Below are positions 11,586 to 15,568 of a stretch of DNA of 15,593 bases, piece by piece (the stretch's first letter is position 1; every line of letters starts with the position of its first letter). The translations under genes were made by a program, and so were the position numbers. The notes beneath the pieces were generated by a model. It ran no database searches and was not told the DNA's origin. It worked only from the letters and a program-made list of their open reading frames with translations. Source of the DNA: a virus; UHGV virus genome UHGV-0078853, one strand, 5' to 3'.

Positions 11586-11733
11586 ACCTCACACCTCTTT
11601 CAATCAAGGATTGCACACCAGCTTTCCACGCCCGCCACGCGAGACGCGTCTTAACGTTCAGGTACTCTTTCTTTGAACCCTTGTTAACCGGCAGACCCTC
11701 GACCACAGCCCACCGTTCAAATGCTTCTCTCAT
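11578..11733 (-). CDS. hypothetical small protein (51 aa)
   Basis: ATG 11733 overlaps the upstream stop (ATGA); translation MREAFERWAVVEGLPVNKGSKKEYLNVKTRLAWRAWKAG...; stop overlaps the next start. Confidence 0.4.
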   Translation of the reverse strand: MREAFERWAVVEGLPVNKGSKKEYLNVKTRLAWRAWKAGVQSLIERGVRYG

Positions 11734-11908
11734 ACCAGAACCTCACATTCATCCAGATACACGAACAATAACGACCCTTTGTACTCAATCATAAAACCAT
11801 AATGGTTGATGCTGAACGCCGGAAAAACATCACCTACCGAGATACCGAAATCTATAAGCCTGCGGTCAGTTATACGGACAAGCCTGCGGTCAGTTATACG
11901 GATTCGCA
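11730..11908 (-). CDS. hypothetical protein with internal 8-aa tandem duplication (59 aa)
   Basis: Likely start ATG 11908 (GGGAGG upstream); N-terminus MRIRITDRRLVRITDRRLIDFG encoded by a 24-bp tandem repeat. Confidence 0.5.
11857..11904. repeat. 24-bp tandem direct repeat, 2 copies (22/24 identical)
   Basis: agcctgcggtcagttatacggaca followed immediately by agcctgcggtcagttatacggatt; in-frame within the CDS 11730-11908. Confidence 0.9.
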
Positions 11909-12109
11909 TTAACGGCAACCTCCCTCAGAGTCGTCGGCACAAGCATCACGATTCGATGCCGTTTTGATTGCCTGTAAGCTATTTAGCATTTGCTGGCTAT
12001 CCATCGTAATAATTGTAATCCCGTCTGATAAATGCACCTCGTAGCGTTCAGCTACGAAATATATTTCCTCGAAATCATGATGTTTCAGTTCTTCAAATAA
12101 TTCTTCCAT
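11909..12109 (-). CDS. hypothetical acidic protein (66 aa)
   Basis: ATG 12109 with an AAGGGG Shine-Dalgarno; overlaps the upstream stop (TGATG). Confidence 0.5.
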   Translation of the reverse strand: MEELFEELKHHDFEEIYFVAERYEVHLSDGITIITMDSQQMLNSLQAIKTASNRDACADDSEGGCR

Positions 12110-12300: not shown

Positions 12301-12334
12301 AACCCTCACTCCTCTGTCTCGTTCCGATAAGTGA

Positions 12335-12363
12335 ATAGTATCCTATTATGTTGGGGCGTGCAA
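12335..12363 (-). promoter_or_regulatory. promoter proximal to the early-left operon, TTGCAC-N17-TACTAT (minus strand)
   Basis: Minus-strand -35 TTGCAC at 12363-12358 and -10 TACTAT at 12340-12335; dyad AATAG-N4-CTATT overlaps the -10. Confidence 0.5.
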
Positions 12364-12422
12364 GAGATTAGTTACGTTGCCGTTGTGATTCTTTCGTTTC
12401 TTAAAGGAGTACGCAACGCAGT

Positions 12423-12442
12423 GGGTGGGCGTTAGCCCACCC
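12423..12442. promoter_or_regulatory. stable GC hairpin GGGTGGGC-gtta-GCCCACCC in the early-left leader
   Basis: 8-bp perfect stem with no adjacent U-tract on either strand; lies between element B and the proximal promoter. Confidence 0.45.
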
Positions 12443-12483
12443 CAGCGGAGTGAAGTACTCTCTACCTCACTCACTCACGGCAA

Positions 12484-12680
12484 CTATAGAAACTTTTAAT
12501 TATCAGTGACTTGGGTATTTAGGCGGGATTAACAATAGACTTTGGCCCTTCCGAAAGCGCCAGCGGAACTACACTCAAGTGCCTAATGGCACGCGTTGCG
12601 TTCCCTGCCGCTCCGCGGTCGCTTGCGATATCTCACAAGCTCAGTGAAGCTTAGCATATTTTTAAGTAAAAGTCAATACT
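12484..12680 (-). repeat. copy B of the conserved promoter-leader element
   Basis: See 1216-1408; same blocks in the same order and orientation. Confidence 0.8.
12648..12676 (-). promoter_or_regulatory. putative promoter inside element B (TTGACT-N17-TAAGCT, minus strand)
   Basis: Minus-strand -35 at 12676-12671 and -10 at 12653-12648; identical architecture to the copy-A promoter. Confidence 0.4.
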
Positions 12681-12723
12681 AGTAGCATCTTTTGTATCTT
12701 AGTAACTTTGTGTGGTGTTTTGG

Positions 12724-12752
12724 TTGCTTTTACAAAGTTACCGCCTTATACT
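12724..12752 (+). promoter_or_regulatory. putative rightward promoter for the replication operon (TTGCTT-N17-TATACT)
   Basis: -35 at 12724-12729 and -10 at 12747-12752; AGGAGA Shine-Dalgarno and ATG 12782 lie downstream. Confidence 0.45.
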
Positions 12753-12781
12753 TAGGTACATCTTACATAGGAGAACGTGAA

Positions 12782-12952
12782 ATGACTATCAATGAAGTAG
12801 CTGAACGTATTGGGGTGACACGTCAGACAATTAATAACTGGATTAAGAGTGGAAAGTTTCCTGATTGCAGCGTTAAAGTAATGGGTCGCCGGATGCCGGG
12901 GACATTTGACCGTAATAAAGTTGAAGCGTGGATTAAGGAGAATGTGAAATGA
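12782..12952 (+). CDS. AlpA/excisionase-type helix-turn-helix DNA-binding protein (56 aa)
   Basis: MTINEVAERIGVTRQTINNWIKSGKFPDCSVKVMGRRMPGTFDRNKVEAWIKE matches the AlpA-family HTH pattern. Real start is ATG 12782 with AGGAGA, not the track start at 12692. Confidence 0.75.
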   Translation: MTINEVAERIGVTRQTINNWIKSGKFPDCSVKVMGRRMPGTFDRNKVEAWIKENVK

Positions 12953-13239
12953 AAGGTGTAATTTTCCACGATAAAGAAAATGACAGTGCTTATATGGTTT
13001 ATTTAGTGCAAGGCGAGTACGCGTTATGCTTTAACGTTTCTTGTAAACTGGACTCTTATTCACCGTTTTGCGTTACAGAAGAATTGCAGTTGATTAGTCT
13101 CCGAAGACTCAGCACAATGTCGGCTTCCATCGATGTCTCTGACCACTTAGCGTACGTTTGTCAGTATTTCGGTGATGAGATTGTTGTAGATTATTATCGT
13201 AAGTACGCGCATTTGATGGAATGTCTGGCTAATAGATAA
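12949..13239 (+). CDS. hypothetical protein (96 aa)
   Basis: ATG overlaps the upstream stop (ATGA) with an AAGGAG Shine-Dalgarno; no recognisable motif. Confidence 0.55.
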   Translation: MKGVIFHDKENDSAYMVYLVQGEYALCFNVSCKLDSYSPFCVTEELQLISLRRLSTMSASIDVSDHLAYVCQYFGDEIVVDYYRKYAHLMECLANR

Positions 13240-13296
13240 AAGAAAGCCCCAGCGTTAGAGCGCCGAGGCCAAATTACTTGCCGAGGGAAATATAAC

Positions 13297-14238
13297 ATGT
13301 CCGATGTAATTTTATCCTACTCGTGGTCGCGTCGCAACGCGCGGGCTGAGAAAAAGGATATAAACGTCAGAACCACACACACGGCAACACTGGACGACCT
13401 GAAAGAGTTAATCCAGCCACTCGATGCTGTCCGTGACGGAATTAACCCGAAGACCGCGCCCGGTTATATCACCGCCGCGTGCGACTCGACGCACAGCACT
13501 GTAAAAGACCCGGAAACCGGCGACTTTAAGCAAGCGCGTAAAGGCTTTTTCTATCGCTGTGACGCGTCTGTAAGCAAATCGTCGCTGGCGTATCTGGACT
13601 TCGACAGCGCAACACCAGAAGAGTATCAGGAAGCGGTGCGCTTAGTTAAACGCAGCCGCCGGGGCATGTGTATCTATACCACGGCATCACATACCGACGA
13701 GTCCCCGCGCTTTCGCGTCGTCATGCCGCTGGCCCGTCCGGTTGAAGGTGGTGACATTATCCGTGTTCGTCACGGCTTGCTCGAGCACTTCTTCAAAGGC
13801 ATGGGTGCTGACCGCAGCGGGTTCACTCTGTCACAGCCGATGTATCTGCCGCCGGTTGGCGCTACTGTTATCTGGTCGCGTCGCAACGACCTGATTGACC
13901 CGGACGAGTTACTGGAAGGCATCCCCGCCGTTGACGTTAGCAGCGCATCGGATTACCAGATACCGAAAGAACTGCGAACAGCGTTTACCGATGCGTTTGA
14001 AGCACTGGCGTTCGAGTACGGCGGTATTATGACCCCGCGCGGCCTTAAGATGCCCGCTACGCCGGAACACGCCGAGAACTACAGCGACCCGACACCGCGC
14101 CCGGATGACTTCCTGCTGTGCTTCCCGCGCGAGGGATATGAAGCGCCTAACGTAACCATGATTCACGACACCGACATTACGGCGACCGAGGGCATGTCAC
14201 CGAAAGAGGTGTGGAAGTATGCGGCTGCCGTTCAGTGA
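13297..14238 (+). CDS. replication protein, possible primase or primase-polymerase (313 aa)
   Basis: GAGGGA Shine-Dalgarno; contains LAYLDFDS (DxD-like) and YTTASHTDE (S-H) motifs reminiscent of AEP-type primases, and sits directly upstream of a RecA-fold ATPase. Family assignment is tentative. Confidence 0.4.
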   Translation: MSDVILSYSWSRRNARAEKKDINVRTTHTATLDDLKELIQPLDAVRDGINPKTAPGYITAACDSTHSTVKDPETGDFKQARKGFFYRCDASVSKSSLAYLDFDSATPEEYQEAVRLVKRSRRGMCIYTTASHTDESPRFRVVMPLARPVEGGDIIRVRHGLLEHFFKGMGADRSGFTLSQPMYLPPVGATVIWSRRNDLIDPDELLEGIPAVDVSSASDYQIPKELRTAFTDAFEALAFEYGGIMTPRGLKMPATPEHAENYSDPTPRPDDFLLCFPREGYEAPNVTMIHDTDITATEGMSPKEVWKYAAAVQ

Positions 14239-15568
14239 AGTCGCAGAGGCCATCGGTTGGGGTGCACGTGAATCTGTTTCTTGCAGCCTGGACGACCTTG
14301 AAGACGACGAGGACTCAGAGGAGGACGAGTTACCGGAACCGGTAAAGGCTGATTTCGTCGTTGAAGGGTACATGCCGTCGGATTGCATATGGGATATCGT
14401 CGGGGAGTCCGGTACGTATAAATCCTTCTATACGCTGGGGATGATGTACCTGAGCGCCACCGGATACCGGTTTGCGGGTGCTGACACCCAGCGTTGCCAC
14501 CATTTCTATATCGACGGTGAAGGCGGCGCAGCTACCCGCACCCGTATCGATGCGCTCGCGGCTAAATATGGCGAGGAAGGTAAAGATTATGTACATGTTA
14601 TAGACATGGGTGAAATACTCGGTATGCGAGAGGATAAAAAACTTACAGCACTCATCCGTATGATGCGTGAAACAGCAGGAGAGGAACCGATCGGTATGAT
14701 TGCGTTCGATACCCTCAACCAGACGCTGGCCCTGACGATTGATAAGTTTGATGAGAACAGTTCATCAACTGCAATCGGCATGGGTAAAGTCATCGCTATC
14801 CTTAAAAAAGCGCGTGACGCGACTAAAGCTGCGGTAGGCGTTGTACACCATACACCGAAGGGCGGAAAGAAAGCCCGAGGTAGTGGTGCGCTGTACGCTG
14901 GCGTCGATGTGGAGCTGACAATCGAACGCGCGACAGACCGTCAGATAAATGTATACCACTCTAAATTTAAGCATGGGCCGCAACAGAAGACGGTTGGTAT
15001 GGTGCTTGAGTCGGTACAGTTCCGCGAAGCCCCGCCACCGAAAGAATACCGCGCGGTTGAGTTCCTCGGTAGCACAGAGGAATACGGCACAACCGTTAAC
15101 CTCGACCTGCCTGAGCCGCACAAAGCGCTTGTGCTTATGCCGTGGGGCTTCGAACCGTTCAAGACCGACGAGGAGAAAGAGCGGGAAGAAGGACTGACTA
15201 AGGAAGGTAAAGAAAACGTACGTAGAACCATGGAGAACGCCGTCAACAGTTCGGAAGCCACGATACTGGCGGCGTTTGAACTGGCGGAAGGAACCTACAA
15301 CGGCAACGAAGGTATCACGGTAGCCGCGGCAAATAAGCTCGCACAGTCTGACCCCAACGCGAAGGCGTTCAACTCCAAAGAAGTCATAGAACGCGGAAAG
15401 ATTAAGAAAATGGTTGAGGCGGGGTATCTTGTACCTGGTACGGACGAAAACAATCAGATAATCCCGGGCCGTTACAGATTGAATACCCGAATAACGGACA
15501 ACAAGATTCCGAAGACAATATACGAACCGAATGAAATGCTGACAGTGACAGAGGAGGATTTGGAATAG
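14219..15568 (+). CDS. RecA-fold replicative ATPase/helicase, AAA_25/DnaB-like (449 aa)
   Basis: P-loop-like GESGTYKS, acidic linker DDLEDDEDSEEDE, Walker B-like MIAFDTL and the VGVVHHTPKGG motif typical of this helicase family; ATG 14219 with an AAGAGGTG Shine-Dalgarno. Confidence 0.7.
   Translation: MRLPFSEVAEAIGWGARESVSCSLDDLEDDEDSEEDELPEPVKADFVVEGYMPSDCIWDIVGESGTYKSFYTLGMMYLSATGYRFAGADTQRCHHFYIDGEGGAATRTRIDALAAKYGEEGKDYVHVIDMGEILGMREDKKLTALIRMMRETAGEEPIGMIAFDTLNQTLALTIDKFDENSSSTAIGMGKVIAILKKARDATKAAVGVVHHTPKGGKKARGSGALYAGVDVELTIERATDRQINVYHSKFKHGPQQKTVGMVLESVQFREAPPPKEYRAVEFLGSTEEYGTTVNLDLPEPHKALVLMPWGFEPFKTDEEKEREEGLTKEGKENVRRTMENAVNSSEATILAAFELAEGTYNGNEGITVAAANKLAQSDPNAKAFNSKEVIERGKIKKMVEAGYLVPGTDENNQIIPGRYRLNTRITDNKIPKTIYEPNEMLTVTEEDLE

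Follow-up and report, generated by a model that had tools for sequence, protein, structure and literature searches.

The DNA considered here is a stretch of 15,593 nucleotides (nt) from UHGV virus genome UHGV-0078853, called the window below. Between positions 12,782 and 15,568 it carries an operon that would encode a small helix-turn-helix (HTH) DNA-binding protein of the HTH_17 type, a 96-amino-acid (aa) protein and a replicative primase-helicase, the last distributed over two open reading frames (ORFs) of 313 and 449 aa. The region is very probably the rightward early/replication operon of a virulent K1G-like Kagunavirus (Guernseyvirinae), a siphovirus of Escherichia coli, in which a single primase-helicase gene has been split and in which the tyrosine found in the helicase P-loop is native. 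An earlier note on this DNA had described a replication module combining a primase and a helicase; this description was borne out, the ORFs are as it gave them, and the motifs that it quoted are all present where it had placed them.

The assignment to Kagunavirus relies on comparisons along the whole contig. The DNA of the module is 88-94% identical to Kagunavirus genomes (AV104, phiEc3/4, K1ind2/3, K1G and K1H), the other 12.6 kb of the window show up to 95.5% identity to Kagunavirus and contain terminase, portal, capsid and lysis genes, and matches to Kagunavirus genomes cover up to 90% of the contig at ~92-95% identity. The order of the genes, HTH-hypothetical-primase-helicase, resembles that of PICI/P4-type replicons, and the earlier note had raised a satellite context. 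The presence of terminase, portal, capsid and lysis genes on the same contig, together with the lack of anything similar to the module in 5,426 complete E. coli genomes, indicates that this is not a satellite replicon. No integrase was seen in the window, and given the identity of ~88-95% to virulent Kagunaviruses, the idea that the module is part of a phage satellite or of an integrated element rather than of a phage can hardly be entertained.

The known system closest to the module is the helicase-primase of Kagunavirus and Jerseyvirus (K1G ORF34-type, SETP3/Ent3 gp43; phrog_3228), a gene that has reportedly been annotated since 2010 and for which a literature search found no biochemical study. 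It has the same operon order (HTH, small ORF, primase-helicase) and the same GESGTYKS loop, and it differs in that the relatives have a single chain whereas the window has the 313-aa and 449-aa ORFs. The 313-aa ORF corresponds to positions 1-275 of phrog_3228 ‘replicative helicase-primase’ (766 positions; E=1e-92) and the 449-aa ORF to positions 321-766 (E=1.8e-184). Since both match consecutive stretches of one profile, they represent one gene interrupted by a frameshift, and they overlap by 20 nt in different frames. AV104, phiEc4 and K1ind2 carry the gene as one annotated coding sequence of 2268-2286 nt, and Jerseyvirus Ent3 as one of 2187 nt; the fused form, at least 700 aa long, is found in 118 of the 120 listed homolog clusters, the single protein being typically 740-762 aa. 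Leaving the split aside, the two halves match P0001, a fused protein of 761 aa, at 98-99% identity (98% for the 313-aa ORF against P0001 residues 1-309) and share 92-99% identity with the closest homolog clusters. What the earlier note had taken for a primase-helicase pair is thus one gene, split by a 14-base-pair (bp) deletion that is unique to this contig (Table 1).

Table 1. Features of the replication module, in window coordinates; residues are numbered within the ORF that carries them.
Feature	Position	Strand	Remarks
56-aa HTH_17 (excisionase/MerR-type) DNA-binding protein	12782-12952	+	first gene of the operon; ATG after AGGAG
96-aa protein, function unassigned	12949-13239	+	ATGA overlap, translationally coupled to the HTH gene
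313-aa N-terminal fragment of the primase-helicase	13297-14238	+	putative divergent AEP-like primase domain and region equivalent to a Zn-binding/PriCT module
AYLDFD, putative AEP motif I (hhhDhD)	13588-13605	+	LDFD is residues 100-103; aligned to All3500 motif I (hhalign)
YTTASH...RFRVVMPL, motif II region	13675-13731	+	TTASH is residues 128-132; H132 variable, R140 invariant
D172-x7-Q180-x-M-Y-L-P185, putative AEP motif III Asp and motif IV position	13810-13851	+	
SD-like AAGAGGTG, then ATG 14219 after 7 nt	14204-14221	+	possible coupled restart; read from sequence
449-aa C-terminal fragment of the primase-helicase	14219-15568	+	acidic linker, predicted RepA-like RecA-fold core (~39-260), C-terminal region with probable winged helix (~345-425)
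Junction of the 14-bp deletion	14222/14223	+	GTGYGATGCGACSG present in relatives; MAFFT alignment with AV104, phiEc4 and K1ind2
Walker A loop GESGTYKS, residues 62-69	14402-14425	+	Tyr67 (14417-14419) where Gly is canonical; K68/S69 canonical
Remaining catalytic residues: E101 (GEG), D164 (Walker B, IAFDT), E179 (DEN), H210/H211, R220 (arginine finger)	14519-14878	+	
VGVVHHTPKGG, residues 206-216 of the 449-aa ORF	14834-14866	+	contains H210/H211
AEP, archaeo-eukaryotic primase; SD, Shine-Dalgarno.

The deletion costs about five linker residues (CDATG) and shifts the frame, and the upstream ORF stops four codons on (...KYAAAVQ, stop), its last four residues (AAVQ) being an out-of-frame tail. 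The ATG at 14219 is situated upstream of the missing bases, whose loss brings it into the reading frame of the helicase; in the relatives, the 14204-14221 stretch is in-frame coding sequence for PKEVWKY. The primase half would thus end four codons past the deletion, and the helicase half could restart at ATG 14219 with a good Shine-Dalgarno sequence. Programmed +1 frameshifting that would restore the fusion was also considered and judged unlikely, there being no slippery codon before the TGA at 14236.

On balance we lean, without much force, towards a deletion present in real DNA. That the two-ORF arrangement is an artefact of assembly or sequencing, and that the real phage carries an intact fused gene, is a serious alternative to which we give somewhat less credence. 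A search with a degenerate pattern gave no occurrence of the deleted junction in the IMG/VR and JGI metagenomes, while the intact junction was found in 7 IMG/VR contigs, and by exact-sequence look-up both fragment proteins were found on one ENA metagenome contig only, the window itself. The split is therefore a singleton among public contigs, and one that comes from a metagenome assembly, which counts against a split borne by the phage. The contig moreover ends 25 nt past the gene, as is typical of a mixed-strain sample, and in a second metagenome scaffold, from a related Kagunavirus (L004), the gene is interrupted only a few bases away from this point by foreign sequence and a gap of Ns, which hints at assembly trouble. 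Against an artefact, a clean loss of 14 bp without a long flanking repeat is atypical of short-read or de Bruijn graph errors, and both halves are otherwise intact and nearly identical to the fused P0001.

A more far-reaching proposal is that the deletion is real and that the phage works with separate primase and helicase chains, the helicase being made by translational coupling from ATG 14219. The break lies in the interdomain linker and so few residues are lost that both domains are complete; the SD-like AAGAGGTG is placed 7 nt before the ATG, the ORFs overlap, and it is common for phages to encode primase and helicase in separate genes (PMC4889955). Both activities would sit on separate chains in this contig, provided that the helicase half is translated. 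This proposal is nevertheless doubtful: the split is a singleton among related clusters that are fused in nearly every listed case, viability and expression are putative, and a defective genome carried by a co-infecting wild type would look identical.

Truncated forms of the gene were also observed elsewhere. In the ENA scaffold mentioned above, KUNK20-1...scaffold_5899 (L004:3900-3975), the break lies within a few bases of the equivalent of window position 14222 and is followed by 50 nt of foreign sequence and then by a 10-N gap, leaving a truncated 316-aa N-terminal ORF (P0125); the 50 nt had no match in any phage record. Truncated forms of 456 aa occur in two independent records, P0122 (Escherichia phage CR01, WKW35199.1) and P0127 (a Logan assembly). 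Both end just past ...HGDKK (then SPR or FPR), around the equivalent of window position 14630, through a frameshift inside the helicase domain at a variable insertion. Either a sequencing error in a homopolymer or a slip that recurs could account for the frameshift that they share.

The family of the helicase half, which the earlier note had left uncertain, could be settled from profile comparisons. The 449-aa ORF matches Pfam AAA_25 (PF13481) at E=4e-20 and 72.7 bits (cut-off 27), and a profile of 42 relatives, searched against the PDB, matched 1G8Y, the hexameric helicase RepA of RSF1010, at E=1.4e-18, the two P-loops coming into register; the single 449-aa sequence gave no match in the PDB. 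As judged from these matches, the C-terminal half of the enzyme is an RSF1010 RepA-like (AAA_25) RecA-fold helicase, and the gene as a whole is the Kagunavirus/Jerseyvirus helicase-primase, so that the reservation about the family did not hold. The protein shares with RSF1010 RepA (1G8Y/1NLF) the RecA-fold core, the Walker A Lys, the catalytic Glu, the Walker B Asp, the HH pair and the Arg finger. It differs in that RepA has a canonical GGAGKS and is a stand-alone protein of 279 aa, whereas in the protein of the window a Tyr precedes the Lys, fusion to a primase is the normal state and ~190 aa are added at the C-terminus. A winged helix probably lies at the end of the helicase ORF's C-terminal 190 residues: the C-termini of relatives give weak RPA_C/HTH_27 matches, and this region is the best-predicted part of the AlphaFold model outside the ATPase core. 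A comparable design is found in Corynephage BFK20 gp43, a cited example of a RepA-like helicase fused to an AEP domain (PMC4889955). An N-terminal AEP-type domain and a C-terminal AAA_25 domain are common to both proteins and their helicase cores align; gp43 differs in having a Prim-Pol domain (PF09250), a canonical GPSGVGKS and an N-terminus without detectable similarity to that of the window.

The glycine that precedes the Walker A lysine is near-universal in P-loop NTPases. The canonical Walker A pattern, GxxxxGK[ST], is not matched by the GESGTYKS of the window, where this glycine is replaced by Tyr67. As the SPGGAGKS of RepA aligns opposite the P-loop of the family, the register is confirmed, and it is indeed Tyr67 that precedes the Walker A Lys. 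Of the 120 listed Kagunavirus-level clusters, 119 keep T-Y-K-S, as does Jerseyvirus Ent3, which makes the tyrosine, on this conservation, a fixed feature of the Guernseyvirinae, including many independently isolated lytic phages. The earlier note had asked for a tyrosine conserved in homologs rather than a sequencing variant, and it is so conserved; the note's refuting condition, a canonical GxxGxGKS in homologs, does not hold for the close relatives.

An exhaustive HMMER search of 1.84 billion representatives clustered at 50% identity yielded 8,423 relatives at E<=0.001, and the P-loop was tallied in the 146 best of these that cover the loop, the top 150 having been ranked by their similarity to the Tyr-bearing query. 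The residue before the Walker A Lys was G in 76, Y in 33, F in 24, L in 5, M in 3, A in 2 and W, S or H in 1 each, and the Lys itself was present in all 146. When these best 146 were re-aligned with the window protein by MAFFT, 75 had Gly and 59 had Tyr, Phe or Trp. The residues E101, D164, E179, H210/H211 and R220 are invariant or nearly so among the 146 representatives, alike in both classes: the catalytic Glu, the Walker B Asp and the second His are each present in 59/59 sequences of the aromatic class and in 75/75 of the Gly class, and the Arg finger in 57/59 and 74/75, respectively. On a rough tree the Gly and aromatic states are interleaved, with 36 inferred changes compared to 46-56 when the labels were shuffled, and the closest outgroups (~32-40% identity) mostly have Gly (GESNIGKS). 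Because the same departure from Gly is seen in 59 relatives, Tyr67 is no bar to membership in AAA_25. As far as these alignments reach, the tyrosine is one case of a common aromatic (Tyr/Phe) P-loop variant among RepA-like ATPases that keep all the catalytic residues. Altered nucleotide handling, a possibility that the earlier note had raised, may go with the tyrosine.

The tyrosine might instead mark a degenerate helicase-like domain that no longer handles ATP, an inactive copy. This would fit with the near-universal presence of the glycine in P-loop NTPases and with the PDB profile search, which turned up no solved structure whose Walker A Lys follows an aromatic residue; a description of such a residue was not found in the literature either. 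However, Kagunavirus and Jerseyvirus genomes that were sequenced independently, many from isolated lytic phages, agree in having the Tyr, and the aromatic class keeps the Lys, the Ser/Thr, the catalytic Glu, the Walker B Asp, the HH pair and the Arg finger as strictly as the Gly class does. The conservation of the Tyr and the intact catalytic residues argue against both a sequencing variant and a dead copy; we regard an inactive domain as very unlikely, and the helicase, from its conserved residues, is most likely an active ATPase. Two points weigh on the other side of this reading of the loop. Firstly, the relatives were ranked by likeness to a Tyr-bearing query, and the aromatic share of ~40% may therefore be inflated. 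Secondly, the AlphaFold2 model of the helicase half is poor (pLDDT, the predicted local distance difference test, of 47.6, and <50 around the P-loop), and the geometry of the Tyr P-loop is not visible in it; the Foldseek matches of this model were all RecA-fold, with TM-scores of ~0.2.

The N-terminal half was compared with AEPs by family-against-family alignment. A profile of 21 sequences of the N-terminal family was aligned by hhalign with 17 All3500 domain sequences taken from the supplement of PMC5862659, which gave a Prob of 95.3% (E 2.3e-8) over 111-139 columns; LDFD, D172 and position 180 aligned to motifs I, III and IV, respectively. As controls, the reversed profiles and an alignment with AAA_25 both gave 0.1%. 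The same family scored 70.7% against PrimQH and 7.3% against PrimHYQ, compared to the 99% that the defined families reach against each other; scores so far below this point to a distant branch rather than to a member of a named family. The proposal of the earlier note that the 313-aa protein is related to AEP primases was thus upheld by the All3500 alignment and its clean controls. The N-terminal half of the enzyme is a putative divergent AEP-like primase, tied by this comparison to the All3500-like AEPs.

The motifs themselves fared differently. R87, D101, D103 and R140 are invariant across the family alignments, and T129, D172 and P185 are kept in at least 90% of the sequences. The spacing of D-x7-R/Q-x-h-x-h-P is identical to that of All3500 motifs III/IV. 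A-S-H132 agrees with the sxH pattern of motif II, but position 132 is H, D or N across the family, and hhalign sets the motif II His of All3500 beside the invariant R140, from which we conclude that the ‘S-H’ is probably not AEP motif II. The earlier note had named both LDFD and S-H as compatible with an AEP-type fold: the first stands, with two invariant Asp residues and an alignment to motif I, and the second probably does not. In the PrimPol-PV1 supergroup of AEPs, which combines a Prim domain with PriCT-1/2 or a Zn-binding domain, a RepA, VirE or D5 helicase and a winged helix (Kazlauskas et al. 2018, PMC5862659), motif II is relaxed (PMC5862659). The All3500-like and PrimQH families have the same architecture as the protein of the window, and motifs I, III and IV of All3500 align with its family; they differ in that the lineage of the window lacks a conserved motif II His and has Gln at motif IV. 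The tables of PMC5862659 list no Guernseyvirinae proteins.

Several observations weigh against a primase. The N-terminal domains of the window and of 25 relatives had no match in Pfam or NCBIfam, the sole signal among them being BT4734-like_N in one member at E=0.013. Searches of PDB sequences with the single protein and with family profiles found no primase. The profile of the window's own subtype alone was not significant against All3500 (Prob 6.6%), and at the motif IV position most relatives have Arg where the window has Gln180. Finally, AlphaFold2 gave a pLDDT of 33 on the N-terminal half and the fold search was uninformative; the alignments supplied to AlphaFold2 for both halves held Kagunavirus-level diversity. 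Homologue searches with the 313-aa protein and with the N-terminal profile returned almost nothing useful, and comparisons by hidden Markov model and hhalign with the single sequences of YuA gp26 (PrimQH) and BFK20 gp43 (Prim-Pol) were negative; only profiles of family against family worked.

In place of a primase, the domain could be a different kind of module, metal-dependent or DNA-binding, for example a nuclease or an origin-binding initiator. This would account for the lack of Pfam, NCBIfam and PDB sequence matches, for an hhalign score of only 95% with a small hand-built template, for the non-conserved motif II His and for the Gln in place of the motif IV Arg. It sits badly with the invariant DxD, with the spacing shared with All3500 motifs III/IV, with the clean reversed-profile controls and with the recurrence of the domain before PriCT_1, PriCT_2 and D5_N, which accompany primases. 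We consider it rather unlikely and retain the AEP-like primase.

This recurrence was observed at several distances. The core of the domain (~residues 85-190) recurs at the N-termini of more distant AAA_25 fusion proteins, and in one AAA_25 relative (P0269) a PriCT_2 lies between the domain and the helicase, at 23.1 bits for a cut-off of 22. A local profile matched the N-termini of four phage proteins at 44-78 bits: the ‘primase’ of Pseudomonas phage RSP, where the domain is followed by PriCT_1 (E 6e-13) and DUF5906; proteins of Staphylococcus phage QT1 and of a Monoglobales phage, where it is joined to VapE; and the ‘DNA primase’ of Brevibacterium phage LuckyBarnes, where it is joined to D5_N and DUF5906. 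By tblastn, Paenibacillus, Clostridioides and other phages also matched with the N-terminal domain. The proteins of the Staphylococcus, Monoglobales, Pseudomonas and Brevibacterium phages (L012:2300-4768, L013:2147-4597, L014:2309-4723 and L015:2288-4645) are annotated ‘DNA helicase’, ‘VirE’ or ‘DNA primase’; in the absence of a Pfam model the domain goes unannotated or is mislabelled ‘helicase’ or ‘VirE’.

Within the genus the gene is a mosaic. Across P0001-P0120, shuffled combinations (A-wh1, A-wh2, B-wh1 and B-wh3) surround a nearly invariant helicase core. There are two types of N-terminal primase domain, ~20% identical to each other, with the type A of the window in 35 clusters and type B in 83, and three unrelated-looking C-terminal (winged-helix) types, which are the homologs of window 15200-15568. 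Type B relatives have a Cys/His-rich segment (CPNEHLH...RFVCQHTNNGAC; CPNxH...CxH...C) that resembles a zinc-binding module. The aligned type A segment in the window (14053-14160, residues ~253-288; ATPEHAENYS...LLCFP...IHDTD) has lost most of the Cys ligands.

The first gene of the operon encodes a 56-aa protein that passes the cut-off of Pfam HTH_17 (E=1.1e-9, 38.9 bits against 27) and matches phrog_66 ‘excisionase and transcriptional regulator’ at E=3e-11. The label ‘AlpA-like’ given to it by the earlier note has to be dropped, as Phage_AlpA (PF05930) scored 14.2 bits (E=0.041), below its cut-off of 21. A TTG start further upstream would yield 86 aa, and Jerseyvirus Ent3 has a 171-nt gene at the equivalent position. 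The 96-aa protein had no match in Pfam or PHROG and no detectable relatives beyond genus-level annotations; AV104 and phiEc4 have at this position a gene of the same size annotated as hypothetical. A block comprising a Shine-Dalgarno sequence and an ATG, AGGAGAACGTGAAATGA, stands at 12769-12785 and is repeated at 12936-12952. The translation-initiation block AGGAGAAYGTGAAATGA is nearly identical before the HTH and 96-aa genes, and a looser copy lies before the primase gene (13284-13313).

The module contains no tRNA, no Rfam family and no iteron-like repeat array, and no excess of promoter-like or terminator-like sites was found in it. A 470-bp non-coding region (window 12310-12780) separates it from a divergent early operon. 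This region holds a GC-rich hairpin, GGGTGGGCGTTAGCCCACCC, at ~12424-12443 and an AT-rich palindrome at 12668-12693, and scans of it for Rfam families, tRNAs and consensus promoters found none; early promoters, operators or an origin could sit in it. Further away, a perfect 24-nt tandem duplication (2.0 copies; window 11856-11902) lies inside a 62-aa early ORF on the minus strand (11730-11918), in which the peptide RITDRRLV is doubled.

Family membership suggests how the enzyme might work. The fused protein of ~750 aa would comprise a primase domain, a Zn-binding/PriCT-type module, a RepA-like ATPase and a winged helix. It may load at the phage origin, possibly by means of the winged helix at its C-terminus, which would probably choose the origin, and with help from the HTH protein. 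The RepA-like RecA-fold ATPase would form a ring and unwind DNA in the 5'->3' direction using ATP. In the AEP-like domain, the DxD and the later Asp would bind metals and the conserved Arg residues would bind nucleotide, and the domain would make primers for the phage DNA polymerase. Primase and helicase are known to work as one chain or as two, fused in T7 gp4 and separate in T4 gp41/gp61; these systems have DnaG/Toprim primases, DnaB-type helicases and canonical P-loops. Compared to them, the split in the window would be a switch between the fused and the separate states.

Combined, the results describe a replication module that is ordinary and belongs to a well-sampled genus of phages; two features are of modest interest, an aromatic P-loop residue and a singleton gene split. 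A real split would amount to a small experiment of nature on the need for a primase-helicase fusion; an artefactual one would be a warning for those who call genes on contigs from metagenomes. A primase-type domain that is widespread in phages and lacks a Pfam model is now putatively tied to the AEP superfamily, and such a model would improve many phage annotations. It is conceivable, though improbable, that aromatic-P-loop RepA-like helicases form a functionally distinct and undescribed class, widespread in phages and mobile elements, with the side chain helping to bind or select the nucleotide or letting subunits communicate, and that at the same time the split allele is a viable natural variant; if true, the split allele would show that an AEP-like primase and a helicase can function on two chains. 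Few signatures in biology are as conserved as the Gly-Lys-Ser/Thr end of the P-loop, and a Tyr stands there in the helicase of the Guernseyvirinae examined, among which are many lytic isolates employed in work on phage therapy. These phages would offer an inexpensive and testable way to ask how a P-loop makes room for a bulky side chain and whether the choice of nucleotide changes.

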